54,195 bases of DNA, taken from an uncultured archaeon (lineage in GTDB: Archaea > Aenigmatarchaeota > Aenigmatarchaeia > Aenigmatarchaeales > Aenigmatarchaeaceae). The position numbers and the translations under genes are program-made. Positions within the stretch are counted from its first letter, which is position 1, and each line of letters begins with the position of its first letter. The notes under the pieces are model-generated. The model searched no databases, was not told the origin of the DNA, and saw only the letters and a program-made list of their open reading frames with translations. The stretch is taken from NCBI GenBank assembly GCA_964348065.1, contig CAYGBE010000092.1:1-54195 (forward strand), written 5' to 3'. Below, piece by piece: positions 5,702 to 52,325 of this stretch.

Positions 5702-6961
5702 TTATGGGTAAACCCTTGTCATTGTTCTGGGAAATGGAATTGTGTCCATTATGTGTTCTACTCCAGCAATCCACATTATTAGTCTTTCTATTCCTAAACC
5801 AAAACCAGAATGAGGAACTGTTCCATACTTTCTTAAATCAATATACCACTCGTAATGTTTTTTATCAAGTTTGAAAATTTTTATTGATTCCAAAAGTTCT
5901 TTGATATCATAAATTCTTTCACTTCCCCCAATTATTTCTCCTACTCCAGGAACAAGCAAGTCAGCTGCTAAAACAACTTTAGGGTCTTTAGGGTCTGGCC
6001 TCATGTAAAATGCTTTCATATCTCTTGGAAAATGAGTGAGAAATACTGGTTTGCTTCCTAATTTTTCTATTAACTCTCTTTCATCTTTGTCAGTTATATC
6101 ATGACCCCATTTTTTTCCTAATTTTTCTAATGCTTCTTTATATTTTATTCTTAAAAATGGTTTTTTCAATTCTTTTAATTCTGTTAAATCTCTTCCTAAT
6201 TCTTTTAATTCTTTTTCACAATGCTTTAAAACATGATCAACTACGTATAAAATCAAATCTTCTTCAAATTCTATTATTTCTTCATAATCCACCCAAGCAG
6301 CTTCTACTTCAGCTGTCCAATATTCTGCTATGTGTCTTTTTGTTCTTGATTTTTCAGCTCTAAAGGCTGGAGTGATAGTATAGATTTTTTCTAAAGTTTG
6401 TATCATGGCTTCAGCATATAGTTGCCAAGATTGGGAAAGGTATAATTCTTTATCAAAGTATTTAACTTCAAAAAGAGAAGAACCACCTTCACAGGCTGCT
6501 GTTGTAAATATAGGAGATTGAATTTCAAAAAAACCTCTTGAACGACAAAAATCGTCAATGGCTCTGAAAACCTCGCTTCTTATTTTAAAAATTCTTCTTA
6601 ATTTCTGAGACCTTATCCACAAATGCCTTACATCTCTTGTAAACTCTTCACTTAAATCCTTTGATATAGGAAATGTTTCTGCTAGTCCAATTATTTTTAA
6701 GTCTTTAACTTGAATTTCAAAACCACCAGGAGCCCTTTTATCTTCTTTGACAATTCCTAAAACTTGAATAGAAGATTCAACAGTGGTATCTCTTGCTTCT
6801 TCAATTCCTTTGCAGGCTAGTTGAATTATTCCTGTTGAGTCTCGCAAAATTAAAAAGACTATGTCTTTCTGGTCTCTTTTTCTATAAACCCAACCTCTTA
6901 ACCAAACTTCTTTTCCAGTTAAATCTCCTTTTAAAACATCTTTAATATGAATAAAATCCAT
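5702..6961 (-). CDS. asnS: Asparaginyl-tRNA synthetase (class IIb)
   Basis: N-terminal OB-fold region (VWLRGWVYRKRDQKDIVFLILRD), motif 2 FRAEKSRTKRHIAEYWTAEVEAAW and motif 3 GFGLGIERLIMWIAGVEHIMDTIPFPRT. The start was moved to the ATG at 6959-6961 to avoid overlap with the upstream gene. Confidence 0.8.
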   Translation of the reverse strand: MDFIHIKDVLKGDLTGKEVWLRGWVYRKRDQKDIVFLILRDSTGIIQLACKGIEEARDTTVESSIQVLGIVKEDKRAPGGFEIQVKDLKIIGLAETFPISKDLSEEFTRDVRHLWIRSQKLRRIFKIRSEVFRAIDDFCRSRGFFEIQSPIFTTAACEGGSSLFEVKYFDKELYLSQSWQLYAEAMIQTLEKIYTITPAFRAEKSRTKRHIAEYWTAEVEAAWVDYEEIIEFEEDLILYVVDHVLKHCEKELKELGRDLTELKELKKPFLRIKYKEALEKLGKKWGHDITDKDERELIEKLGSKPVFLTHFPRDMKAFYMRPDPKDPKVVLAADLLVPGVGEIIGGSERIYDIKELLESIKIFKLDKKHYEWYIDLRKYGTVPHSGFGLGIERLIMWIAGVEHIMDTIPFPRTMTRVYP

Positions 6962-6992
6962 ACTATCACTATCCTTATTTTTATATTTATTT

Positions 6993-7937
6993 TTATCCTC
7001 CTGGCAGTTTTGTAAATGGTGCTGCATCTTGAATATGTTCTAAACCACAAATGAATCTTGTTAATCTTTCTAAACCCAAACCAAAACCTGCAGTTGGCTT
7101 AACTCCTTTTTTTAATATCTCTAGATATAACTCAAATTTTTCAAGCTCTCCTGACTTTTTCAATTTTTCCAAAATCTTTTTATATTCAAATTCTCTTTCA
7201 CTCCCTGATATTGCTTCCCCAAATCCTTCAGGAAACAACAAATCAAAGCCAAGCTGAAAATCTCCATCATCCCTATCATAGAAACCTCTACTATCTTTGG
7301 GATAAAATTTTACAAAAAATGGTTCATCAAAATGCATGGAAATTGCTTTTTCAGCCTCCCATGGTAGTTCTTTGTCATAAGAAATTTTGAATCCTAGTTT
7401 TTTTGCTAAATCAACAGCCTCTTTGTGAGTTAATCTTTTAAATGGTAGACTTGGTACTTTGATATCTCTCCCTAAAATTCTTAGTTCTTTTTCACATTTT
7501 TCTTTTATTTCTGAAATAACAAATGAAATTAGTTTTTCCGCTAATCCCATTGCATCCTCATGGTCTTTTTCTGGTATTTCAACTTCTATTTGATAGAATT
7601 CTGATAAATGTCTTCCACTGTGTTTTGAAATCTCTGGTTCTTTTCTAGCACATGGACAAAATGAAAATATTTTACCTAAATGTGTTGCTAGTAAAGGCTT
7701 ATGAACTGTTAAAGCACTCATCAGACTATATGGTTTACCGTAAAAATCTATTTCAAAAAATTCTGCTCCTCTTATTCCTGGATCTGTAAATGGTTCAAAT
7801 AAAGGAGCTCTTATTTCTAAAAACTCTTCATCTTTTAAGAATTTTCTTATTGCATACATTATTTCTGACTGTATTTTTAAAACAGCCTTTGCTTTAGATG
7901 CTTCTAAAATTAGGTATGCCCTAATTTTGACCTTCAC
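6993..7937 (-). CDS. AsnRS/AspRS catalytic-core paralog without anticodon-binding domain (archaeal AsnA-type asparagine synthetase-like)
   Basis: 314 aa with class II motifs (SGRHLSEFYQIEVE; GFGLGLERLTRFICGLEHIQDAAPF) but no N-terminal OB fold. The GTG start overlaps the upstream stop as GTGA. Confidence 0.7.
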   Translation of the reverse strand: MKVKIRAYLILEASKAKAVLKIQSEIMYAIRKFLKDEEFLEIRAPLFEPFTDPGIRGAEFFEIDFYGKPYSLMSALTVHKPLLATHLGKIFSFCPCARKEPEISKHSGRHLSEFYQIEVEIPEKDHEDAMGLAEKLISFVISEIKEKCEKELRILGRDIKVPSLPFKRLTHKEAVDLAKKLGFKISYDKELPWEAEKAISMHFDEPFFVKFYPKDSRGFYDRDDGDFQLGFDLLFPEGFGEAISGSEREFEYKKILEKLKKSGELEKFELYLEILKKGVKPTAGFGLGLERLTRFICGLEHIQDAAPFTKLPGG

Positions 7938-8116
7938 CTTTCATATTCTTCACCTCTTAAAATTTTTTTAATTTTTATTAAAACTCGAGAATCTCCTCTT
8001 ATCTTTAACTTTTTTCTAATAGAAGCTGGTATTGTTATTCTTCCTCGATGATCAGAAATAGAAGTAAAGCTAAGGGATTCTATTTGCTCATATTTGTCCC
8101 AAATTTTGACGTCCAC
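7934..8116 (-). CDS. AbrB/SpoVT (MazE-like) swapped-hairpin DNA-binding protein
   Basis: 60 aa with GRITIPASIRKKLKIRGDSRVLIKI, the SpoVT/AbrB signature. GTG start, and a 4-nt overlap with the AsnRS paralog. Confidence 0.6.
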   Translation of the reverse strand: MDVKIWDKYEQIESLSFTSISDHRGRITIPASIRKKLKIRGDSRVLIKIKKILRGEEYER

Positions 8117-8218
8117 CCATTTATTTCACCTAATAGTAGTTACTAATAACTGGTATTTAAAACTATGTGGGTAAGGTTTTTATTTTTCATTTTGTAAATC
8201 TTTACTACTAGTGGTTTA

Positions 8219-9641: not shown

Positions 9642-10610
9642 ATGGCATGGTACAAGAGATATGGATGGTCATCCAACCCTTTTGAACTAGTTCCTATGCC
9701 AGACACTATTTCTGGAGTTCAAGAAATAAGGCAAGAAATCATAGAATACATCAATTCTGGCGATTGTTGCCTTTTAACTGGAGAAGATGGCATGGGAAAG
9801 ACTATTATATTAAAATGGTTGGAAAAATATCCATCTCCTAAAACTTTACCAATATATCTAAATACTTTAGGTATGAACCCAGATGAAGTATTGAAAATAA
9901 ACATAGATGAAATGATAAGAGAAAAATCAAAAGGAGGTTTTTTCGGAAAAAAGAAAAGAATTGTAATGCTTATTGATGATGCTAATTCTTTGCCACCTAT
10001 GATAGGAAGGTCTGTGAAAAGAAATTTTGATAACAAATTAATTCATTCTATTGTTCTGGCTTCTGATACAGATGAATTAAAAAATCTTGAAGGAAATCTT
10101 TTGGAATTAATAGGTGAGAGAAAAATAAAACTAAGACCATTAGCACTTGATGAAGCCAGAGAAATGATAAGTAAAAGAGTCAAACACGTTAATCCCTTTA
10201 AGCCTGATAGTTTAGAGCCAATATTCAAAAAAGCAGACCTTATTCCAAGAAAAATTTTAGAACTCTGTGAAATGATAGCAAGGGAAAACAAAGAAAAAAC
10301 TATAACTAGACACTTTGTTAAAAAATGTTTTGAGTACAAACCAGAAATTGAGATCAGTAAAACAGAGCTTTTTGATAGACTTTCGCCTTTGCAAAAAGAT
10401 ATTGTTAATATTTTAAAAATAGGAAATTTTACACCTAGTGAAATAGCTAAAAAGTTAAACAAACCAACAAAAACTATAACTTCCCAACTAGCTTATTTGA
10501 GTTTGAAATCTGGCATTGAACTAATGAAAAGAAAAGGAATAGAAAATCCTATTGTTGAAAAGATTTCTGAAGATTCTTCTGTTTATAGATTAACAGATGA
10601 AGTAAAATAA
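9642..10610 (+). CDS. AAA+ ATPase with C-terminal winged-helix domain (divergent Orc1/Cdc6-like or Arch_ATPase-like)
   Basis: Walker A LLTGEDGMGKT, Walker B IVMLIDDANS, a lid-like IKLRPLALDEAREMISKRV and a C-terminal wHTH LSPLQKDIVNILKIGNFTPSEIAKKLNKPTKTITSQLAYL. Confidence 0.6.
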   Translation: MAWYKRYGWSSNPFELVPMPDTISGVQEIRQEIIEYINSGDCCLLTGEDGMGKTIILKWLEKYPSPKTLPIYLNTLGMNPDEVLKINIDEMIREKSKGGFFGKKKRIVMLIDDANSLPPMIGRSVKRNFDNKLIHSIVLASDTDELKNLEGNLLELIGERKIKLRPLALDEAREMISKRVKHVNPFKPDSLEPIFKKADLIPRKILELCEMIARENKEKTITRHFVKKCFEYKPEIEISKTELFDRLSPLQKDIVNILKIGNFTPSEIAKKLNKPTKTITSQLAYLSLKSGIELMKRKGIENPIVEKISEDSSVYRLTDEVK

Positions 10611-10625
10611 TCTTTATAACAAAAA

Positions 10626-10925
10626 TTATATCCAACGTCTAACTTTCTTTTTATAATTAAAATACTTCTTACCAAAGATTCTTTTGAGATTTTTTTCTTC
10701 AAAAGGAATAAACATTAGCTCCATTAAAATTACAAATGCAATTGGAAATATAAATGTAATTAGGGTTCCATGATTAATTGCTATGCCTAATAGTATTGCA
10801 GCAAATCCCAGATATTGTGGATTTCTGCTAATGCTGAAAGGACCCGAAATTATCAATTGGGTAGGTTTTTCATATGGTTTTACTGTAGTTTTCTTTTTCT
10901 TTAACAAAAAATCAGCCCAAGACAT
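10626..10925 (-). CDS. Isoprenylcysteine carboxyl / phospholipid methyltransferase family, C-terminal half only (possibly a truncated remnant)
   Basis: SGPFSISRNPQYLGFAAILLG...IPFEEKNLKRIFGKKYFNYKKKVRRWI matches the catalytic C-terminal part of ICMT/PEMT proteins. The N-terminal TM helices are missing, and only 96 nt of upstream space remain. Confidence 0.5.
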   Translation of the reverse strand: MSWADFLLKKKKTTVKPYEKPTQLIISGPFSISRNPQYLGFAAILLGIAINHGTLITFIFPIAFVILMELMFIPFEEKNLKRIFGKKYFNYKKKVRRWI

Positions 10926-11021
10926 TTTTTCACAAACAAATGTGGTATCTTAAGATATCATCTTTAGAAAACATTCTATAAAAAAGTCAGTTTTGCATAT
11001 CTGAAGGAATTATTCAGGTTT

Positions 11022-11354
11022 TTATTCTTTTTTTTCTATGTTTTCACTAAAACTACTTGTAATATCAATAAATTTGCCTAATCCACCCAGAATACAAATC
11101 AGCAAATATAATTGAAATCTATGATATAACATAGAACGAAGTTGTGGTCTATTAAAACTTTTTGGAAATATTTTTTGTCCTTTTGAAAAAAACCCATAAT
11201 ATGCTTCTAAAGGTTCCATTTCACCTTGAAAAACTTGTTCAGCTAAAGTTTTCATAACTGACTGAAATTTTAATGAATTCTCTTTTTTTAGAAACTCTTC
11301 AATAGAAAGTTCAATTTCTTTAATTCTGTCATCCTGTTTTATCTTGTTTTTCAT
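11022..11354 (-). CDS. Hypothetical protein
   Basis: 110-aa ORF with an ATG start. It is the only long frame here, and no family was recognised. Confidence 0.4.
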   Translation of the reverse strand: MKNKIKQDDRIKEIELSIEEFLKKENSLKFQSVMKTLAEQVFQGEMEPLEAYYGFFSKGQKIFPKSFNRPQLRSMLYHRFQLYLLICILGGLGKFIDITSSFSENIEKKE

Positions 11355-11590
11355 TTTATCACTCTTTAAAAATTATCATTAGGGACTTAAATTATATGTA
11401 TATCCACTATTTATCATTTTTAAATAATGAACGCCCGAGGCATTTTCTTTATAACTTTTGTGGTGCCCGAATTTTCATTAATTAATAACAATAATTTTAT
11501 TAATAATTTTATTTATTGTTTTAGATGATAAAAAATATGGAATTATTTTTTCGAAAGATTTATATTCAACATGTAACAAATATTTAATCT

Positions 11591-19469: not shown

Positions 19470-19805
19470 ATGAAAATAAACAAAAATGATGTAAAACCAA
19501 TAGAAGATACTTGCGGTTCAATAAGAGAGCTTTACAAATCTGAAAAAATAAGCATCGCTTACGTAACTTTATTTGGAGAAGCAAAAGAACATACTCATAA
19601 AAAAATGGAAGAAGTTTATTACGTTGAAAGGGGAAATGGCCAATTAATTGTTGATGATGAGGTTATAGAACTTAAAGAAGGAGATTTAATCTCTATACAA
19701 CAAAATAGTTGGCATTATTTAAAAAATCTAGGAAAAAAACCTCTAGAAATAACAGTTACAAACTCTCCGCCATTTGACAGAAACGATGTAATCATGAAGT
19801 CCTAG
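19470..19805 (+). CDS. Cupin domain protein
   Basis: EHTHKKMEEVYYVERGNG...GDLISIQQNSWHYLKN fits the two cupin motifs. The ATG is preceded by AGGTGA. Confidence 0.7.
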   Translation: MKINKNDVKPIEDTCGSIRELYKSEKISIAYVTLFGEAKEHTHKKMEEVYYVERGNGQLIVDDEVIELKEGDLISIQQNSWHYLKNLGKKPLEITVTNSPPFDRNDVIMKS

Positions 19806-20742
19806 ACAAAATGCTTTCTAAAAGATCAGGAGTTGTTTCTGCTACCTCTCTTATCCAATATAAAGCATTGATTAATTTCTTATTTTTTGTTTCTTCTAAT
19901 ATTTTATTGACTCTATCCCTTATCTCTACTTTGTAATTAAAAACTCTTCTAGCTTTTTCTTCATTAAATTTAAAATAAATTAGTGACAAATCCTCAACCA
20001 TGTCTTTTAGATCTTCTATTAGTTTCAATATTCTCTCATCTTTTATCTTGTAATTAGCTAAACTTTTTCCCATTCTTGAAACATCATCAGAAAGATGTTC
20101 TATCAGAAAAACTTCTGAATACATTATTGGTATTTTTCTAAGTTCTATGTTTCCAGAAGGGTGTCTTAACTCTTTGTTTAACTTTCTTAAAAGCAAGTAT
20201 GTAAAACGGTTTACTGACATATCTCTGTCATGTAAAGCTTTTGCATCAGTGTTACCTTTAGTCTTTAAAACATCATCTATCATAGTTTTTATCAAAAGAA
20301 AACACCTTCTTAATATCTGATGAATGGGTTGTTCAGAGCTTACTCCTAGATCTTTTATTAAAAACATGTTTTCTGTTTGTGAAACAATCTCCATTCCTAT
20401 AAGATTCTTAACCCTTTCATTAATTTTATCGTAAAATTTGGTTGTGTCACACAAAACAGTTATCTCATCATAGCCCTTAATGTAACTAGCCTCTATTAAT
20501 CTTTGACCAAAGCTTGCTATGTATGGTTCTGACTCGTCTCTACGAGGTTCTTTTATATCTTTGATTCTTAGTGTTGTTCTAAGAGGCTTGAATTTATGTT
20601 TCTGGGTAGTTATGATTAATTTTGAATCACTTTCATCTACTTCTAATTCATCTCCTGGAGAAATTTCCTGTTCTTTGACCCATTTTGCTGGTAGAGACAT
20701 TACTAAGGTTGCTTTTCCCAGTTGTACAGCCTTTCTTTTCAT
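19792..20742 (-). CDS. AbrB/SpoVT-domain + PhoU-like regulator (archaeal phosphate-uptake-regulator type)
   Basis: The N-terminus KAVQLGKATLVMSLPAKWVKEQEISPGDELEV is SpoVT/AbrB-like. It is followed by about 230 aa of helical PhoU-like repeats. Confidence 0.7.
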   Translation of the reverse strand: MKRKAVQLGKATLVMSLPAKWVKEQEISPGDELEVDESDSKLIITTQKHKFKPLRTTLRIKDIKEPRRDESEPYIASFGQRLIEASYIKGYDEITVLCDTTKFYDKINERVKNLIGMEIVSQTENMFLIKDLGVSSEQPIHQILRRCFLLIKTMIDDVLKTKGNTDAKALHDRDMSVNRFTYLLLRKLNKELRHPSGNIELRKIPIMYSEVFLIEHLSDDVSRMGKSLANYKIKDERILKLIEDLKDMVEDLSLIYFKFNEEKARRVFNYKVEIRDRVNKILEETKNKKLINALYWIREVAETTPDLLESILSRTS

Positions 20743-26007: not shown

Positions 26008-26874
26008 TTATTGGGTTTTTATTCCAATAGCCAAAGAATTTAATGTTTCTTCTACTCTTCTTTTATTAATGTTTTTCCCGCTTAACTTTTCGCTAACATT
26101 TCTACAAAATTCAAATCGTTCTATTGAATCAGGTATATTATCTCTCAATTTTCTTTCAATTGTATTTTCTAAAAAATATTTAGGAATATCATCTTTGCTT
26201 ACATCTTTGCCAAGAACCATACTTCTCACAATTCCAACGTGTGTCAAAGATGTATAAGGTGATTTCTGAGGTATTTTTATTACAACTGGAGCAGCACCAA
26301 CAAGTTGAACAACTGGTGGAAGATACACACCGCTTAAAACAGCTTGGACAATCACTTCGCCATTGTCAGACAATTCAGGATATTTATCAAAAACATCTCT
26401 AGACAGATTTAGAGCATTCTCTTCTATATTTCTGGCCCTAATTTTAGCGCTTTTAGATTTCAAAAATAAAGATTGATATATTTCGTTGCATGCTTCATCT
26501 ACATTATCTTCATTAAAAAACGATTGTGCCCTTTTCCTGTGTTTTAACTCTTGGTCATGTATTGTTCTTAATTCAGCAGCCTTTTCTTCTGAATGGGCTT
26601 CCAAAAAATGAAATTTTATTTCTTTTTCACATTCTCTAAACGAATCTATTAATGTTTTATGAAAATTGTAAAAAATACGTCCGCGTTTTAATTCCCTGTC
26701 TCCTCTTACAAGTTCTTTGTAATAACGTGTTAGATCAGCCAACTCTTTATAGGTTCTTCCAGGTTCTTGGGGAATGAAAACGTCTGGTTGAAAATTTCGA
26801 AAATCTCTAATAACAAATTCAGCATCTTTATCTGTTGTATGGGCATTATAAGAAACTATTAGTGTCTCAACCAT
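26008..26874 (-). CDS. Hypothetical protein, last gene of the CARF-HEPN-like operon
   Basis: 288-aa ORF with an ATG start, 6 nt downstream of the preceding gene. Its stop abuts the stop of the convergent presenilin gene. No family was recognised. Confidence 0.55.
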   Translation of the reverse strand: MVETLIVSYNAHTTDKDAEFVIRDFRNFQPDVFIPQEPGRTYKELADLTRYYKELVRGDRELKRGRIFYNFHKTLIDSFRECEKEIKFHFLEAHSEEKAAELRTIHDQELKHRKRAQSFFNEDNVDEACNEIYQSLFLKSKSAKIRARNIEENALNLSRDVFDKYPELSDNGEVIVQAVLSGVYLPPVVQLVGAAPVVIKIPQKSPYTSLTHVGIVRSMVLGKDVSKDDIPKYFLENTIERKLRDNIPDSIERFEFCRNVSEKLSGKNINKRRVEETLNSLAIGIKTQ

Positions 26875-26880
26875 ATTAGA

Positions 26881-27345
26881 TCACTTCTCCATTGCAAATG
26901 CATGTTTTTTCCAAAATTTTTCGTCTGTAAAATCAGGACAATATTCACCAGGAAAAATTGTACGAAAACCATGTTTTCCAGGCTTTCCTAAATCATCAAG
27001 AGGACCTGCAATTATAACTATCTGGTTAGTTGGTTTTCTTTTAACATTGTAAACAACATTTACAGAAACTTCATCACGAATCTCTTTTTTTACTTCAACC
27101 CCTTCTGGTAATTCATCTAACGAAACTACAGCATCTAAACCAATTGGATAAGGCATCTTGACTTCACGTACAAGCAATTCTCCAGAGTAATCTCCTATTT
27201 TTCCTAGAGCAAATTCTATTAATTCTTCAGGACTTGAAAAAGCTTCTTTATAAAAAACAGAACCTACTGCTGACTCACCAAAATGTCTTTCTTTCAAATG
27301 TTCCCTAAACTCGCTGTTTGTTTCGAATTTATAGTCCTTTAACAT
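26881..27345 (-). CDS. Hypothetical protein, third gene of the CARF-HEPN-like operon
   Basis: 154-aa ORF with an ATG start, 32 nt after the CARF-like gene. No family was recognised. Confidence 0.55.
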   Translation of the reverse strand: MLKDYKFETNSEFREHLKERHFGESAVGSVFYKEAFSSPEELIEFALGKIGDYSGELLVREVKMPYPIGLDAVVSLDELPEGVEVKKEIRDEVSVNVVYNVKRKPTNQIVIIAGPLDDLGKPGKHGFRTIFPGEYCPDFTDEKFWKKHAFAMEK

Positions 27346-27377
27346 TAATCACTAATAAGTAAGTAATATTTAAAAAC

Positions 27378-28808
27378 CTATCGCAATTTTAAGAATCTAT
27401 GACAATTTATTAGAGAATTAAAATCTTTTTCATATATCAAGCATAAATTTTTTAACAATTCTCTATTAATTTCTTTTAATTTTTCATAATTATTTTTACT
27501 AATAATCTGTACTCCATGGGCAATAAAAGAATAGTCTCGGAGCTTAATGCAATCTATAAAATTCTTTAAATCTTGTATAGTTTTTTCTTTCCAGATATCA
27601 TCTTCAATAGCAAAGAGTATTATATGGCCACTTTTTAATGCTGTTTGCAGTGGTAATGCCTTTTCCTCTTTGTAAATTTCTTTAGTTAATTCATCATATT
27701 TATTTCTGGTTTTTATATCCAAAAGGCTATAATCTGGAGATGATGAATCTATACCTATTTTTGCTAATCTATGTTGAGAAACTAGTTCAATGGCTCTATA
27801 AAACCTTGATACCGCATCCTCAAATTTATTTTGTTCAGCACGTCTTTGCGCATTACAAAAAATATCTGCTATTAAATGAGTGGACATATATTCATTTTTT
27901 AATGTATCTATCAACTTCTTATCAGAAAATTGAATCTTATTCAAATATCTTTGAGCAGTCAAATTCATCTTCAGCTGTTGAATATCTAAAGCCCTGACAT
28001 TGTACTGATTAATTTTATTTACAGCTCTTTCTAATATTGGCAAGGATGCCCTATAATTAAAAGAGTCCCAAAACATGTAGCTTTCAGATAGTAAAGATTT
28101 AACTTCAAATTCTCTTGGATCAGGAGCTTTTTTAATAATATCCCTAAAAAGCAAACTCGAGGAAAAATATCTATGATTGTTAAAGAGTTCGATGGCATAT
28201 GTTTGTTCCAAATCCCCGAAAATGTGCAGGGGATTTTTTAATTTAATTAATTTTTCTGTTCCAGGTTCACCTCTCTTTATGTCATCATACCAACCTTCAT
28301 CTATATGTATCAAATCACAACCAAAAAAATCTCCTACAATAGCAGCGCCAGCTGTCATTATTCTCTTTCCTCTAGTAAGGTCAACTGCTATTTTCTTTCC
28401 TTTGAATAAATACAATTTATTTTTAATCTTGCTGTAAACATCAGCTGCATCCATGGCTTTATACTCTATAACATCCTTCTCATATTGGCCCTGAGTAAGG
28501 CCTGTCATCTTTATTATCTTATCCAGAAAATATTTTTCTCCTTCTTTTGTGCAAAGAAAGTAAACCTTTTTCGGTTTTAAACCATTAATTAAAAGAATGT
28601 AATAAGAAGACTCTAGACCCATTGGTATAACAAGCAGATCATATTGTGGTATTTCCCCATTTTTTATCAATTCCTGAGTTTCTCTGGCAAATTTTCTTTC
28701 TATAAAGGGAAATATTTTTCCCCAATACAGCTTATCTGCTTCTTCTTTTCTCCCTTTTATCATTAATTCTTTCCATTCTTTTTTCAATGTATCAAAAGAA
28801 GAATCCAT
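27378..28808 (-). CDS. CARF-domain protein with C-terminal HEPN-like module (Cas02710/Csx1-like architecture)
   Basis: LLVIPMGLESSYY and VDLTRGKRIMTAGAA resemble the two CARF signatures. FEDAVSRFYRAIELVSQHRL and LRDYSFIAHG (R-x6-H) resemble the HEPN part. Confidence 0.6.
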   Translation of the reverse strand: MDSSFDTLKKEWKELMIKGRKEEADKLYWGKIFPFIERKFARETQELIKNGEIPQYDLLVIPMGLESSYYILLINGLKPKKVYFLCTKEGEKYFLDKIIKMTGLTQGQYEKDVIEYKAMDAADVYSKIKNKLYLFKGKKIAVDLTRGKRIMTAGAAIVGDFFGCDLIHIDEGWYDDIKRGEPGTEKLIKLKNPLHIFGDLEQTYAIELFNNHRYFSSSLLFRDIIKKAPDPREFEVKSLLSESYMFWDSFNYRASLPILERAVNKINQYNVRALDIQQLKMNLTAQRYLNKIQFSDKKLIDTLKNEYMSTHLIADIFCNAQRRAEQNKFEDAVSRFYRAIELVSQHRLAKIGIDSSSPDYSLLDIKTRNKYDELTKEIYKEEKALPLQTALKSGHIILFAIEDDIWKEKTIQDLKNFIDCIKLRDYSFIAHGVQIISKNNYEKLKEINRELLKNLCLIYEKDFNSLINCHRFLKLR

Positions 28809-28810
28809 AA

Positions 28811-29548
28811 TTATAATTTCTTACCAACTATTATTAACCTTTTTGTTTTTGCACTTATAGGCTCGCCTTTAAAACTACCAAAATTCTTTATAATTTTTAT
28901 TCCAACTTTTTCAAACATATTCTTTAACTCATGATAAGAATAAATCCTGCAAGAAATTTTCTTTTCTGAAATTTTTCTTTTATTTTTTGAAAGAAATGTC
29001 CATGTAGCATTTATTCTACTCGTTGAAAAATCAAATTTTCTTTCTTCTAAAAGATATCCGGGTTTTAATTTACTCAAACGGCTTTTTCTAAAATGTTTTA
29101 TTATGAAATCTCGATTAGAAACATCCATTATTATTTTGCCATTTTTCTTTAAAGCTCTAGCCATTTTTCTTAACACATCTAAGTTTTCATCATCAGAGAA
29201 GTAGCCAAAACTTGTAAAAAGATTGAGAACGACATCAAACTTATTTTTAAATTTTAATTTTCTCATATCGCCTTGCATGAATTTTGTTTTCAAACGGAAT
29301 TTTCTTGCTTTTTCTTTACATTGTCTTATGTATTCTCTTTTAAAATCGACTCCAACAACATTATATCCTCTTTTTGACAATTCTATTGAGTGTCTTCCTA
29401 AACCACACGCCAAATCTAGAATTAAAGCATTCTTAGGAATTTTTAGAATTTTTAAAATAAAATCTACTTGCTTTTTTGCTTTTCTTTCTTTATTTTTTAA
29501 ATCAAATTCTGAATAAGTTTTGTCAAAAAATTTTTGACACCATTTCAT
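28811..29548 (-). CDS. Class I SAM-dependent methyltransferase
   Basis: Motif I ILDLACGLGRH, with the acidic VGVDF and post-I/II elements (FDVVLNLFTSFGYF). Its stop lies 2 nt before the CARF-like start. Confidence 0.85.
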   Translation of the reverse strand: MKWCQKFFDKTYSEFDLKNKERKAKKQVDFILKILKIPKNALILDLACGLGRHSIELSKRGYNVVGVDFKREYIRQCKEKARKFRLKTKFMQGDMRKLKFKNKFDVVLNLFTSFGYFSDDENLDVLRKMARALKKNGKIIMDVSNRDFIIKHFRKSRLSKLKPGYLLEERKFDFSTSRINATWTFLSKNKRKISEKKISCRIYSYHELKNMFEKVGIKIIKNFGSFKGEPISAKTKRLIIVGKKL

Positions 29549-29909: not shown

Positions 29910-29972
29910 TCAATACCCTTTTACTTTTATCTTTTATTTTGTATTCTAGGAACTATTTAAAACTATCGTTTG

Positions 29973-45008: not shown

Positions 45009-47144
45009 TTAAGACTGAGCCAAAGTTTTTTCTTCTTCCAAAATCTCATGAGATTGCTCTTTAATCTCATCTTCTGATGGAATTGAATAAAAACTTGTCC
45101 CATTTTTTTCTTCTTTTGTGACCAGCCCCTTTTCTCGCATTGTCCTGATCTTCCTAAAGAGCGTAGCTCTAGAACATATGTTTTTTCTCAAAACTTCTTC
45201 TTCCAAGGCTTTTGTTTCTATTGGGCCCTTTTCTTTTATGAGACTGAGAATAAGAGATGTATCAATCTTTCCTAAGGTCTGACCCAACCTTTTTTTGGTT
45301 CCTTCGTCTTTAGTAGCATGAATCTCAGTCTCTATTTCAAACCTGAGATTCCTAAGGATTCTTAGCACTTTACCCTCATAAGATTGCAATTGTTGTTTAA
45401 AATCTTCTTGTAGTTCTATTTGCTTGCTTACTCCATCCTGTATTACTACTATATTGTCTTTGTAAGTGTCTATTTTCTTGTCCAAAGCTAAGAAACATTG
45501 ACCTACAGCTGTTGATAATTTATCGAACTTTTGGTTTAGCTCTCCCACAGAAGAGCCTGTTAAGATTTTCTTATCTAGAACAATTTTTTTACCTTCTTTG
45601 TCTTTTCCCTTTCCTCCAAATAACCTAGCAAAAAGTCCAGGTTTATTTTGCTCTATTGTTTGCCTGATTTGTTCAGAAATTAATTGTTGCTGTTTGGCTA
45701 GCTGTTCTGTTATTAACTTGTCGATTTCTGGAGTGACTTGATCCATTAGCTTAGATGTTTGTGAGGGTACGGTCTGTTCTATTGATTGTTTGATTTGATT
45801 TATTAACTTGGTTGATTGAGATGTTAGTTGATCATCCATTGATCGTTCTATTTCTATGACAATTGGTTCTATAAGTTTGGCTGATTGGGAAGGTACTGAT
45901 TGCTCTATTGTTTGTCTGATCTGCTTAGATATCAATTGTTGTTGTTTAGTGGATTGTTCAGCTATTACTTTTGGGACAACTTGCTCTATTGCTTGTTGGA
46001 CATGTTCAGAAAGCGCTTCTGATTGTTTGATTGATTGTTCTTCTATTAGTTTTGTATATTGTTTTAAAATTGATTTTTTTACCCTTTTAACATAATTAGA
46101 AACAGCCTCTGATTGTTTGATTGATTGTTCTTCTATTGATTGCTCTATTTCTGGAATGACTTGCTCTATGAGCTTGGTTGATTGGGAAGGAAGTGATTCT
46201 TCTATTGTTTGTCTGACATGTTTAGAGACTAATTGCTCTATTTCTGGGATAACTTCTTCTATAAGTTTAGCTGATTGCGAAGGGATTGTTTGCCCTATTG
46301 TTTGCCTTATCTGTTTGGAAATTAACTGTTGTTGTTTAGATGTTTGAGATACTAGTTGATCGGATATTGATTGCTCTATTTCTGGGATAACTTCTTCTAT
46401 CAACTTAGATGTTTGTGAGGGTACGGTCTGTTCTATTGATTGTTTGATTTGATTTATTAACTTGGTTGATTGAGATGTTAGTTGGTCTGTTATTAACTTG
46501 TCGATTTCTGGAGTGACTTGCTCCATTAGCTTAGATGTTTGTGAGGGTACGGTCTGTTCTATTGATTGTTTGATTTGATCTGAAATTGTTTTTGATTGTT
46601 TAGTAGATTGTTTTTTTATTAATTCCTCTATTTCTGGAATGACTTGCTCTATGAGCTGGGTTGTTTGTGAAGGGAGTGATTCTTCTATTGTTCGTCTTAC
46701 CTGCTTAGATATTAGCCGCTGTTGCCTAGTTAATTGTTTTTTTATTAATTGTTCGGGAATAACTTGTTCAGTTTCTTTTTTTACTTTTTTAATTTTCTTA
46801 GGCTTCTTTATCTTTTTAATTTTCTTAGGTTTTATCACAATCTTTGGTTTTTCAACCTTTACAACTTTTTTTTCAGGAATTTCTTCTTTTACTTCCTCGG
46901 CCTTAACTTCGGGCATTATTTCTTTTTTCGGTTCTTCAACTTTTTCTACAGGTCTTACCTCTGCTTTTTGTTCAATCTCTGGTTCTCTTTCAAATATGTC
47001 TTCTTTCTTCTCTTTTTCAAAGAGTTCCTTGATTTCTTCCATTTTTTTCTTAATTTTTTCAGTTTCGTCTTCGTCTTTAGATTCTTCAGATTCCTCACTT
47101 TTTTCTTTTTTGTCTTTTTCCCAGAATTTAAGCTTTAGACCCAT
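45009..47144 (-). CDS. Mosaic-repeat protein: acidic/basic N-terminus, about nine 40-aa Gln/Ser/Glu-rich repeats, C-terminal winged helix
   Basis: The repeats have the form VIPEIEQ..Q.TSQSTKLINQIKQSIEQTVPSQTSKL. The C-terminus LILSLIKEKGPIETKALEEEVLRKNICSRATLFRKIRTMREKGLVTKEE is MarR/TrmB-like wHTH. Confidence 0.7.
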   Translation of the reverse strand: MGLKLKFWEKDKKEKSEESEESKDEDETEKIKKKMEEIKELFEKEKKEDIFEREPEIEQKAEVRPVEKVEEPKKEIMPEVKAEEVKEEIPEKKVVKVEKPKIVIKPKKIKKIKKPKKIKKVKKETEQVIPEQLIKKQLTRQQRLISKQVRRTIEESLPSQTTQLIEQVIPEIEELIKKQSTKQSKTISDQIKQSIEQTVPSQTSKLMEQVTPEIDKLITDQLTSQSTKLINQIKQSIEQTVPSQTSKLIEEVIPEIEQSISDQLVSQTSKQQQLISKQIRQTIGQTIPSQSAKLIEEVIPEIEQLVSKHVRQTIEESLPSQSTKLIEQVIPEIEQSIEEQSIKQSEAVSNYVKRVKKSILKQYTKLIEEQSIKQSEALSEHVQQAIEQVVPKVIAEQSTKQQQLISKQIRQTIEQSVPSQSAKLIEPIVIEIERSMDDQLTSQSTKLINQIKQSIEQTVPSQTSKLMDQVTPEIDKLITEQLAKQQQLISEQIRQTIEQNKPGLFARLFGGKGKDKEGKKIVLDKKILTGSSVGELNQKFDKLSTAVGQCFLALDKKIDTYKDNIVVIQDGVSKQIELQEDFKQQLQSYEGKVLRILRNLRFEIETEIHATKDEGTKKRLGQTLGKIDTSLILSLIKEKGPIETKALEEEVLRKNICSRATLFRKIRTMREKGLVTKEEKNGTSFYSIPSEDEIKEQSHEILEEEKTLAQS
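45706..46579. repeat. Long near-perfect in-frame direct repeats inside the 711-aa gene
   Basis: 45751-45830 equals 46405-46484 (80/80, offset 654). 45706-45799 equals 46486-46579 (93/94, offset 780). A further module at 46143-46174 equals 46626-46657 (offset 483). Confidence 0.85.
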
Positions 47145-51428: not shown

Positions 51429-51618
51429 TTTTAAAAAAAGAATAATAAGCAATTTAGAAGTGCATCCAGAAGGTCTAACCCTACTTAACATAGCTGAAAA
51501 TACAGGAATCAATAGAATAACTGTTTCTAAATACGTTTTGGGGCTGGTTTCTGAAGGTTTAGTCTCTCAGAGAATAATAGGACCAGCAAAATTGTGCTAT
51601 TTGAGGTCAAGAAAATGA
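51415..51618 (+). CDS. Small winged-helix DNA-binding protein (paralog B)
   Basis: KKRIISNLEVHPEGLTLLNIAENTGINRITVSKYVLGLVSEGLVSQRIIGPAKLCYL is colinear with paralog A. It overlaps paralog A by 14 nt. Confidence 0.65.
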   Translation: MEKNNFKKRIISNLEVHPEGLTLLNIAENTGINRITVSKYVLGLVSEGLVSQRIIGPAKLCYLRSRK

Positions 51619-52325
51619 AATCAACAACAGGAAGAGCCAAAAATTTGATGATTTTCCTAGTAGTTTTTATAATTTCTATTTTTATTTTAAAGCAAGTTGG
51701 AATTGTAATAGCTCAAAACGAGTCTAATATAAGTGGATATGTAATATCTAATGTTTCTAATTTTACTGAAACAATTGATAATTTTTCTTTTAGAAATGAG
51801 ACATTTTCTTTTAATTTTACTGAAAATATAACAGAAAACATTACAGAAAATGTGACTTTAAATGAGACTGAGTTAAATATTACTGAAAATGTTACTGAAA
51901 ATGTTACTGAAAATATAACAGAAAATATTACTGAAAACGTGACTTTAAATGAGACATCTTCAGAAGATTTAATAATAAATGAAACTTTGGAAAATGAAAC
52001 TATTATTCCTAATGAAACAAATGAGACATCTCAAGAACCAGTTATTACAAATTTTGATATTAATCTTATTTATCCTCAGAAAATAACAAGAGGAGAAATT
52101 ATAAATGTAAAAGCAAGTGCAACTAATCTTGGTTCTACAGCTAGAAATGTTGTTCTTATTTGGAAATTACCAGATGATTTTGAAACAATTTCTGGATATT
52201 TGAAAGAATTTTGTGGAACTTTAGAGCTAAATGATGTTTGTAGTTCAGAAATTAGCCTAAAAACTAATTTCTCAACACCTCTTGGGTTAAATGAAATTAA
52301 AGTTGTGGTAAGCTATGAAGCATAA
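51615..52325 (+). CDS. Membrane-anchored surface protein with an N-glycosylation sequon array
   Basis: The ATG at 51615 overlaps the previous stop (ATGA) and follows GAGGT. A TM anchor is followed by NFTENITENITENVTLNETELNITENVTENVTENITENITENVTLNET. Confidence 0.65.
   Translation: MKSTTGRAKNLMIFLVVFIISIFILKQVGIVIAQNESNISGYVISNVSNFTETIDNFSFRNETFSFNFTENITENITENVTLNETELNITENVTENVTENITENITENVTLNETSSEDLIINETLENETIIPNETNETSQEPVITNFDINLIYPQKITRGEIINVKASATNLGSTARNVVLIWKLPDDFETISGYLKEFCGTLELNDVCSSEISLKTNFSTPLGLNEIKVVVSYEA
51813..51956. repeat. 12-nt-period coding microsatellite (ACTGAAAAYRTW-like) encoding N-[IV]-T-E repeats
   Basis: The 144 nt give 12 N-x-T sequons in 48 residues. There is a higher-order duplication of the ..NITENVTLNET block. 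Confidence 0.8.

Follow-up and report, generated by a model that had tools for sequence, protein, structure and literature searches.

Stand-alone ring nucleases (Crn1, Crn2/AcrIII-1, Crn3/Csx3) are small proteins encoded beside CARF effectors, and they work by a metal-independent transesterification through the 2'-OH that yields A2>P, a diadenylate with a cyclic phosphate end. Outside this field, the tRNA damage done by the HEPN-type anticodon nucleases PrrC and RloC is countered by the 3'-end healing enzymes T4 Pnkp/Rnl1, and there are the so-called 'Swiss Army Knife' proteins, which reportedly serve in RNA repair. The HD domain of class II bacterial CCA-adding enzymes is said to have 2',3'-cyclic phosphodiesterase/phosphatase activity. 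CARF-HEPN ribonucleases themselves are usually seen as effectors downstream of cyclic oligoadenylates made by Cas10. In the best-studied of them, Csm6 of Thermus thermophilus (TtCsm6, TTHB152), which is activated by cyclic tetra-adenylate (cA4), residues T59 and S60 serve in cA4 cleavage by placing nucleophile and scissile phosphate (PMC10897365). Many CARF homologues are known outside CRISPR loci (PMC12669027), and RtcR, a non-CRISPR CARF protein, senses tRNA halves with a 2',3'-cyclic phosphate, ligands that come from metal-independent RNases (PMC7790460). The nuclease CdiA-CT(Ykris) represents the first bacterial member of the RNase A superfamily (PDB 5E3E; PMC5435912). In this work we have analysed a stretch of 54,195 nucleotides from an uncultured archaeon of the Aenigmatarchaeota (contig CAYGBE010000092.1 of assembly GCA_964348065.1; the whole stretch is called the window below), which encodes a CARF-HEPN protein of 476 amino acids (aa) next to two small proteins of 154 and 288 aa.

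We have found that this CARF-HEPN protein belongs to a clade that host-dependent archaea retain in their minimal genomes, away from cas genes in the loci surveyed, and repeatedly beside a new family of small, putative enzymes represented here by the 154-aa protein. The reading that we prefer, to which we give a probability of about 0.55, is that a ligand-gated HEPN RNase, unlinked to Cas10, is paired with an enzyme whose substrates are 3' ends of RNA or 2',3'-cyclic phosphates.

Family and catalytic motifs of the 476-aa protein

The 476-aa protein matches the NCBIfam family TIGR02710 at 150.7 bits (cutoff 83.9), with residues 72–453 lying on model positions 5–382 of 384. In Pfam, the HEPN family Cas_Cas02710 (E = 1e-26) and the linker family Csm6_6H (3e-12) are recognised, and the CARF models match below cutoff only. 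The CARF_HEPN and Csx1 profiles of PADLOC also match, the best being CARF1--CARF_HEPN (6.6e-92), and by HMMER the protein aligns with TtCsm6 (PDB 5FSH, 8JBB) over residues 58–455 at an E-value of 5e-21. These profile searches bear out what a sequence-only reading of the stretch had proposed from four motifs, namely a CARF-HEPN nuclease of the Cas02710/Csm6 type. All four motifs are present in the open reading frame (ORF): LLVIPMGLESSYY at residues 58–70, VDLTRGKRIMTAGAA at 142–156, FEDAVSRFYRAIELVSQHRL at 329–348, and LRDYSFIAHG, which carries the R424-x6-H431 pair, at 423–432. R424 and H431 are invariant in 27 of 27 homologues, and D425, which stands in place of N416 of TtCsm6, is found in 24 of the 27.

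The membership of the protein in this family is, judging from these matches, far beyond chance. It is a full-length CARF-6H-HEPN RNase of the TIGR02710/Csm6 type, with an activity that is predicted. It shares with TtCsm6 the domain order, the placement of the R-x6-H motif, the D-x-T-x-G-x-[KR] loop and most of the cA4 contacts. It differs from TtCsm6 in having an additional helical segment of ~55 residues at the N-terminus and a non-Cas partner in the adjacent position. Taken alone, the 476-aa protein is of a known kind; its homologues in metagenome-assembled genomes (MAGs) of DPANN archaea carry the automatic TIGR02710 annotation already.

The ligand pocket

The contacts of TtCsm6 with cA4 (PMC10897365) were mapped onto the 476-aa protein through the HMMER alignment, and their conservation was read over the 27 homologues. 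The adenine and phosphate contacts T81, E83, K137, Y161, R172/R173 and E179 of TtCsm6 correspond to T87, E89, R149, H168, K178/R179 and E185, and the position of H168 is Tyr in most relatives. In the loop, D143, T145, G147 and R149 stand for D131, T133, G135 and K137. Since both the adenylate contacts and the HEPN residues are kept, binding of an adenylate-type ligand and cleavage of RNA are still to be expected of the protein. On the other hand, the ring-nuclease pair T59/S60 of TtCsm6 is missing, with L65/E66 in its place, and in 26 of 27 family members a hydrophobic residue occupies the first position of the pair. The self-limiting ring-nuclease activity has thus probably been lost, as far as can be judged from the aligned residues.

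CARF-HEPN genes without cas neighbours

We have collected 39 homologues of the 476-aa protein (31–66% identity) from DPANN-type MAGs of Aenigmatarchaeota, Woesearchaeota, Pacearchaeota and Nanoarchaeota, and surveyed the neighbourhoods of ~20 distinct loci, reaching at most 10 kb to either side; one of the loci lies on the 740-kb contig Ga0366824_1000001. In none of these loci was a Cas10, Csm/Cmr or Cas1 gene found, and so, at variance with TtCsm6, no type III cassette lies nearby. The usual neighbours are genes of translation factors, ribosomal proteins, RNA polymerase subunits and transporters. In the window itself, Tandem Repeats Finder detects no CRISPR-like array, and no cas gene is present; the Pfam matches of the 30 largest other ORFs are to housekeeping families only. 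These include a Na+/H+ exchanger, aspartyl-tRNA-synthetase-type enzymes, FtsZ, DNA ligase, phosphoenolpyruvate synthase, geranylgeranylglyceryl phosphate (GGGP) synthase, glycerol-1-phosphate dehydrogenase, diphthamide and threonine synthases, a DEAD helicase and a HerA-like ATPase. The orphan status that had been suggested for the gene is therefore upheld locally, both in the 54 kb and in the homologous loci, and the lack of cas neighbours is a clade-wide property of the DPANN CARF-HEPN genes.

Two other partners were considered and set aside. A HEPN-MNT (type VII) toxin-antitoxin pair is rejected, as no MNT gene lies beside the 476-aa gene, and the nucleotidyltransferase of locus L004 is a three-domain CCA enzyme whose MntA-like match is weak (9.6e-5, below cutoff). 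Two genes upstream of CARF-HEPN, L015 (2110–3216) and L020 (6555–7658) each have, on the minus strand, a gene of a DisA-type diadenylate cyclase (Pfam DAC and DisA-linker, with DGA and RHR motifs). Such a cyclase near an adenylate sensor is suggestive within one lineage only; as a source of the ligand it was set aside because it is seen near CARF-HEPN in two related loci only.

Several further observations were made in these neighbourhoods. Two overlapping ORFs (9971–11110 and 11068–11364, plus strand) together encode CARF-HEPN in L022, on the 402-kb contig of a Woesearchaeota MAG, where the N-domain partner described below is adjacent and a 154-like gene is not; this copy of the module may be decaying, or a frameshift may have arisen in sequencing. 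Genes of PfkB-family (ribokinase-like) kinases lie beside or near CARF-HEPN at L001:11509–12492 and L002:7548–8681, the latter a faint match; both loci are without a 154-family partner. One protein in the flanks of L012–L024 and L031 matches other CARF profiles (PADLOC CARF_m8, CARF3, CasR; 2.8e-10 to 8e-7), so that at least one of those genomes has another, different CARF protein nearby.

A small protein family beside the CARF-HEPN genes

Word-indexed searches with the 154- and 288-aa proteins returned only the queries themselves, which proved to be a sensitivity artefact: exhaustive HMMER searches and local phmmer did give relatives. By local phmmer on the loci, homologues of the 154-aa protein were detected directly beside CARF-HEPN at E-values of 1e-18 to 1e-33. 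The final census with hidden Markov models (HMMs) covers 20 informative distinct CARF-HEPN loci, the window included. A 154-family gene abuts CARF-HEPN in 12 of them (the window, L007, L013, L014, L015, L016, L017, L018, L019, L021, L024 and L030), and in two more (L012, L022) a gene of another family, which encodes a domain of ~270 aa and is called N-domain below, is found beside CARF-HEPN without a 154-family gene. In the relatives the 154 partner is mostly convergent to CARF-HEPN, with 3' ends touching or overlapping; in the window the two genes are co-directional.

The reverse scan of metagenomes, seeded with the 154 family, gave the same picture: CARF-HEPN adjoins in every contig with sufficient flank, and three further members lie on contigs that are too short or have an uninformative context. 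The CARF-HEPN proteins of these loci are only ~40–45% identical, and the pair is kept where the other neighbours differ. That is, the adjacency has outlasted ~55–60% divergence of CARF-HEPN, a change of orientation, and fusion and fission of the partner, which argues for a functional link. We consider that there is good evidence for such a link between CARF-HEPN and the 154 family.

Sequence and predicted fold of the 154-aa family

The 154 family is small, with 65 clusters at E < 1e-3 among 1.84 billion representative proteins. As the sequence-only reading had held for both the 154- and the 288-aa ORF, no known family can be recognised: neither protein has a match in Pfam, NCBIfam, PADLOC (E up to 1) or the PDB sequence profiles, and Pfam at E-values up to 10 over 28 members of the 154 family names no family either. 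H16, S29, F31, P80, P115, P132, G133, P137 and W145 are invariant in the family, and H21, G28, T106 and H125 nearly so.

The AlphaFold2 model of the 154-aa protein, built on a 28-sequence alignment, has a predicted local distance difference test (pLDDT) score of 94.1 and a predicted template-modelling (pTM) score of 0.86, and shows two N-terminal helices followed by a mainly beta body. Against the PDB, Foldseek places chains D and B of 5E3E, i.e., CdiA-CT(Ykris), at the top (probability 0.93 and 0.84, E = 0.011 and 0.029), everything else having a probability of at most 0.13; against viral structures it returns nothing. The PDB profile search at sequence level does not retrieve 5E3E.

Going by the model and the motifs, the two proteins would have in common an R-H motif on the N-terminal helix, a second helix, the mainly beta body, a T-x-[YF]-P motif towards the sheet's end and the lack of disulfides. 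Judged from the quoted motifs, KRH21F(P)GS of the 154 family (predicted helix 11–21, which includes H16) resembles DRH175VGKT on helix alpha-1 of CdiA-CT, and [ST]129-x-[FY]131-P132 (strand 125–132) resembles the C-terminal T276-G-Y278-P, in which the Tyr is often Phe; both are comparisons of motifs and not superpositions of residues. They differ in that the TM-score is low and sequence homology is not detectable, and in that the 154 family adds the invariant H16, the nearly invariant H125 and a C-terminal FW-x-HAF extension. Furthermore, the 154 family is cytoplasmic, no CdiI-like immunity gene was recognised for it, and its fusions are to enzymes of the RNA-repair type instead of delivery domains. 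The structural match is weak, but the catalytic motifs have counterparts as far as motifs can be compared; an RNase A-type metal-independent phosphotransferase is therefore the best available fold assignment, and we hold it with moderate confidence.

Fusions of the 154 domain and the link to CCA-adding enzymes

The closest relative of the 154-aa protein (59% identity) is the C-terminal domain of P0042, a protein of 537 aa in which an archaeal CCA-adding enzyme (NTP_transf_2, tRNA_NucTransf2 and CAA_C; TIGR03671) takes up the first ~385 residues. In P0057 the 154 domain is joined to an HD/HDIG domain, and in the 2427-aa protein P0099 it lies just upstream of a 'Swiss Army Knife' 2H phosphoesterase (2H-SAK) and an HD domain. 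These fusions point to RNA 3'-end processing, as far as domain composition can tell. Between the CCA part of P0042 and the CCA enzyme of L004 the identity is 49%. The L004 enzyme, together with an RNase Z-like metallo-beta-lactamase protein, lies right beside the closest CARF-HEPN homologue of the window protein (66% identity). Thus three short contigs link the families: the window with CARF-HEPN, 154 and 288; L004 with CARF-HEPN, the RNase Z-like protein and the CCA enzyme; and L026 with a 288-like gene and the CCA::154 fusion P0042.

Compared with the class II bacterial CCA enzymes, P0042 is likewise a CCA-adding polymerase with an extra C-terminal domain; it differs in being a class I archaeal enzyme, with the 154-aa fold appended and not an HD domain. 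By this analogy, the appended domain could heal tRNA 3' ends before CCA addition.

The 288-aa protein and the N-domain family

A homologue of the 288-aa protein lies in L026 immediately upstream of P0042, split over two ORFs with 33–36% identity (E = 4e-14 and 6e-23). A stop codon ends the first of these (3–305) and the second (326–748, both on the plus strand) restarts 20 nt on, which may mean a pseudogene, a true split into two genes or an assembly error. This gene directly precedes the CCA::154 fusion and so connects the 288-aa protein with the 154 domain within the clade of the window. Hence both proteins that had appeared unplaceable are tied to the CARF-HEPN system, the 154-aa one through the 12 of 20 loci and the 288-aa one through L026.

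In Woesearchaeota, Pacearchaeota and Nanoarchaeota, the N-domain precedes the 154-family gene or is fused to its product, giving N-C proteins of 404–457 aa, in which Pfam scans find nothing. The 288-aa protein holds the position that the N-domain protein takes in these other lineages. With the 154 and N-domain families and the 288-aa protein as queries, profile searches of PDB sequences yielded nothing beyond noise or coiled-coil matches, and the single-sequence AlphaFold2 model of the 288-aa protein is unusable (pLDDT 38.9). The idea that the 288-aa protein is a diverged N-domain member was rejected (HMM E-value 6.3; hhalign probability 0.2), and a TraB/ChaN likeness guessed from its sequence was dropped, being unsupported by any tool result. 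In L013, and in the same way in L031, N-domain paralogues stand in tandem, a stand-alone one of 248 aa (7446–8192) and then a 416-aa N-C fusion (6194–7444, minus strand).

Organisation of the locus in the window

The features of the locus are collected in Table 1. The window is a compact fragment of an archaeal chromosome with ~31% G+C, and the base composition at the CARF-HEPN locus shows no anomaly. Rfam finds in the window only the 5' end of an archaeal 16S rRNA, at the window edge, and two tRNAs. The four minus-strand ORFs of 245, 476, 154 and 288 aa, separated in that order by 2, 32 and 6 nt, are as the sequence-only reading had laid them out, and its class I S-adenosylmethionine (SAM) methyltransferase upstream is confirmed by Pfam. 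All junctions between the four genes are covered by contigs of two independent DNA metagenome runs, and so the arrangement is not an assembly artefact.

Table 1 Features of the CARF-HEPN locus, in coordinates of the window.
Feature	Coordinates	Strand	Remark
Class I SAM methyltransferase, 245 aa	28811–29548	minus	Methyltransf_25, 1.8e-22 (Pfam)
CARF-6H-HEPN ribonuclease, 476 aa	27378–28808	minus	TIGR02710 (Cas02710/Csm6-Csx1) family
CARF domain, ~residues 55–195	28224–28646	minus	D143-x-T145-x-G147-K-R149 loop
6H helical linker domain, residues 197–264	28017–28220	minus	Pfam Csm6_6H, 46.8 bits (cutoff 27.6)
HEPN RNase domain, residues 308–452	27453–27887	minus	Pfam Cas_Cas02710, 1e-26
Catalytic R424-D425-x5-H431 of HEPN	27516–27539	minus	aligned to TtCsm6 R415/N416/H422
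Spacer between CARF-HEPN and 154-aa genes, 32 nt	27346–27377	minus	holds TATA-like TTTAAATA
154-aa protein, undescribed family	26881–27345	minus	candidate RNase A-fold (CdiA-CT Ykris-like) phosphotransferase
288-aa protein, mostly helical	26008–26874	minus	second partner in the window's own clade

The gap-free spacing had also been taken as evidence of an operon, and here we come to a different view. The tight minus-strand run goes on past the methyltransferase to 33667, through further genes (TFS-like, signal peptidase, DUF99, an 88-aa ORF, threonine synthase and diphthamide synthase), and spacing is tight genome-wide, so gap size alone says little about an operon. As a conserved neighbourhood, the proposed quartet holds in part: the 154-aa family (12 of 20 loci) and the 288-aa family (beside a 154-domain gene in L026) do belong to it, and the methyltransferase does not. 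The latter adjoins CARF-HEPN in no other locus, with only generic class I matches 2–6 kb off in L002 and L007; it lies outside the conserved module and is unrelated to it.

The TATA-like element TTTAAATA (27367–27374) lies 22–29 nt 5' of the ATG of the 154-aa gene, and it is possible that it acts as a separate promoter for this gene. Such motifs are not enriched across the window (18 observed, 20 expected), and the element is thus compatible with independent transcription of the 154-aa gene and no evidence for it. No RNA-seq run with the locus was found; the locus is seen in DNA metagenome runs.

Two further observations concern this region. An imperfect 19-nt direct repeat, TTTAAAAACCTATCACAAT, at 27369–27408 (2.1 copies, 80% match) covers the CARF-HEPN stop codon and the spacer, and overlaps the TATA-like element. 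One metagenome contig (run X1) joins 27397–27417 to 29926–29946, two stretches of 21 nt, and skips 2508 bases; it has long unrelated flanks and a higher depth (12.7), and most likely reflects k-mers that another organism shares by chance and not a deletion variant.

Elsewhere in the window, two adjacent and slightly overlapping ORFs (5702–7027 and 6993–7937, minus strand) are of the class II (D/K/N) aminoacyl-tRNA-synthetase type; the one of 441 aa has an OB anticodon-binding domain, and the one of 314 aa, with the catalytic core only, could be an AsnA-like or paralogous enzyme. A 711-aa ORF (45009–47144, minus strand) without a convincing family match carries tandem repeats of 93 nt and 126 nt (~77% identity) at 46139–46670, and is therefore an internally repetitive large protein. 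In the 243-aa ORF at 51594–52325, also without a family match, the 12-nt unit AATATTACTGAA is repeated ~10 times (51813–51937). The only recognisable part of a 316-aa protein (19792–20742, minus strand) is an N-terminal SpoVT domain of the MazE/AbrB type (1.9e-7).

Discussion

The locus can be set beside several described systems. With RtcR-RtcBA (PMC7790460) it would share a CARF protein outside CRISPR that is coupled to RNA-end repair; RtcR is however a bacterial transcription activator (CARF-AAA+-HTH) with repair by RtcB and RtcA, while here CARF is fused to the damaging RNase and the fold of the partner is unrelated. The theme of HEPN damage and 3'-end healing recalls PrrC/RloC with T4 Pnkp/Rnl1, as well as the 'Swiss Army Knife' proteins, given that one 154-domain protein carries 2H-SAK and HD. 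In those systems the genomes that encode nuclease and repair oppose each other (host and phage), whereas here both are chromosomal neighbours in one cell and the nuclease would be CARF-gated. As to the stand-alone ring nucleases, their A2>P chemistry would suit an RNase A-type site, and the CARF domain here is without its own ring-nuclease residues; yet the 154 family has neither sequence nor fold similarity to them, and its CCA, HD and 2H fusions are not explained by a ring-nuclease role. In the literature consulted we have found no description of a clade-wide, Cas-unlinked DPANN CARF-HEPN with a dedicated partner family, nor of the RNase A-like model of the 154 family or its fusions with the CCA enzyme, HD and 2H; the main CARF survey (Makarova et al. 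2020) lies outside this comparison, so a prior mention is possible.

In the reading that we prefer, the 476-aa protein would be a catalytically competent, dimeric RNase of the Csm6 type, chromosomal, vertically kept in DPANN archaea and unlinked to type III CRISPR-Cas. It would form a small conserved module in which the 154-aa protein is the constant partner and a third component varies, being the 288-aa protein here and the unrelated N-domain in Woesearchaeota, Pacearchaeota and Nanoarchaeota. Our data show the membership in the family, the conserved motifs, the lack of cas neighbours, the recurrent adjacency, the fusions and the resemblance in fold of the 154-aa model; for the ligand and its source, the RNA targets and the enzymatic role of the partners, we infer the following. 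Binding of an adenylate-based ligand, which may be cA4-like, A_n>P or the oligo-A end of an RNA, to the CARF pocket would turn on the R-x6-H site of HEPN, which would then cut single-stranded RNA, quite possibly tRNA, and leave 2',3'-cyclic-phosphate ends. The 154-aa partner, as a metal-independent phosphotransferase of the RNase A fold, would work on this same chemistry; most likely, it would trim or open these cyclic-phosphate 3' ends, after which the CCA-adding enzyme rebuilds the tRNA; the outcome would be a reversible damage-and-repair brake on translation. Less likely, the 154-aa partner might cleave the ligand in trans and stand in for the lost ring nuclease of the CARF domain. End healing is favoured because of the CCA, HD and 2H fusions; ligand cleavage is attractive because the CARF domain has lost the counterparts of T59/S60, though it leaves the fusions unexplained.

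Several observations weigh against this reading. Neither a 154-family nor an N-domain gene is adjacent to CARF-HEPN in six of the 20 loci (L001, L002, L004, L006, L009, L020), and three of these, L001, L002 and L004, hold the closest relatives of the window protein with long flanks. As the pair is mostly convergent, the partner would be transcribed separately in most relatives. The resemblance of the 154-aa model to 5E3E is weak in geometry (TM-score 0.32–0.41, root-mean-square deviation ~11 Å, E = 0.01), no sequence profile ties the family to any RNase family, and in the profile searches and the 288-aa model the N-domain and 288-aa proteins show no recognisable fold. Finally, our view of the genome spans 54 kb, and Cas10 may be encoded elsewhere in it.

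This last point leads to the possibility that the protein is an ordinary ancillary effector of a type III system, with cA4 made by a distant Cas10 and the neighbours being incidental. The family is curated as CRISPR-associated, with the cA4-activated TtCsm6 as its best-studied member, the cA4 contacts are largely conserved, and some DPANN archaea do have CRISPR systems (PMC12669027). Ancillary CARF genes are nevertheless defined by adjacency to type III loci, while none of the ~20 loci has a cas gene within ~10 kb; the gene is conserved beside a non-Cas partner instead, and the residues by which canonical Csm6 limits itself are lost. We regard this explanation as unlikely, with a chance that still deserves to be taken seriously. 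The structural neighbour of the 154-aa model raises another thought: since this sole neighbour is a toxin of contact-dependent inhibition, the 154-aa protein might be a toxic RNase, with the 288-aa protein or N-domain as its immunity protein or antitoxin and CARF-HEPN as a second abortive-infection effector. Part of the 154 domain indeed occurs within very large multidomain proteins, and the flanks of related loci often hold toxin-antitoxin pairs (HicAB, VapBC, ParE). Such a cassette is quite unlikely all the same, as the 154 domain is fused in frame to the supposed immunity partner in the N-C proteins and to RNA-end enzymes of the housekeeping type, which is unexpected for a toxin; no secretion or delivery domain, polymorphic-toxin context, immunity-like gene or PADLOC match was recognised, the members being stand-alone or fused to the N-domain, the CCA-adding enzyme, HD or 2H.

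The adjacency could also be devoid of function, that is, a leftover, within a single lineage of DPANN archaea, of ancestral synteny among translation-related housekeeping genes. Of the 12 positive loci, ten (all except the window and L030) do come from MAGs labelled Woesearchaeota, Pacearchaeota or Nanoarchaeota, 'archaeon' or, for L021, Methanosarcinales; the neighbours are often translation factors or ribosomal proteins, and there is other, weak synteny around CARF-HEPN as well (an SPP gene). We find this very unlikely, considering that the pair is conserved between loci where the other neighbours are not, that it survives the reversed orientation in the window, the fusion and fission of the partner and the divergence given above, and that the same families have independent links to the CCA enzyme. 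As for a four-gene operon in which methyltransferase, CARF-HEPN, 154 and 288 form a self-contained signalling module whose partners make the ligand, the co-directional, closely spaced genes and the true linkage of the 154 and 288 families would agree with it. It is highly improbable in view of the methyltransferase, which is adjacent in no other locus, and of the general tightness of spacing in this genome; moreover, neither partner resembles a nucleotide cyclase or polymerase, and the associations of the 154 partner point to RNA-end processing.

One may go further than the pairing of a ligand-gated RNase with an RNA-end enzyme and imagine a complete CARF circuit independent of Cas10. In it, RNA cleavage or damage of tRNA 3' ends would give adenylate 2',3'-cyclic-phosphate ends, which the new RNase A-fold family would make, trim or destroy and which would gate the chromosomal Csm6-type HEPN RNase; the circuit would couple translation shut-down with CCA-end repair and possibly read a cyclic oligoadenylate alarm of the host. 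We consider this extended scheme doubtful at present.

If the link between CARF-HEPN and its partner is functional, it would offer a testable archaeal case of CARF signalling that is not part of CRISPR immunity, a counterpart of the bacterial RtcR at the level of the effector, with tRNA ends suggested as the physiological RNA target, and the RNase A fold would gain a probable branch that is neither vertebrate nor toxin. In any case, the 154-aa domain and the ~270-aa N-domain are two uncharacterised families with clear genomic hooks. Should the Cas10-independent circuit prove true, it would mean that these archaea put the second-messenger machinery of CRISPR to a housekeeping or stress use, together with a new archaeal branch of the RNase A fold.

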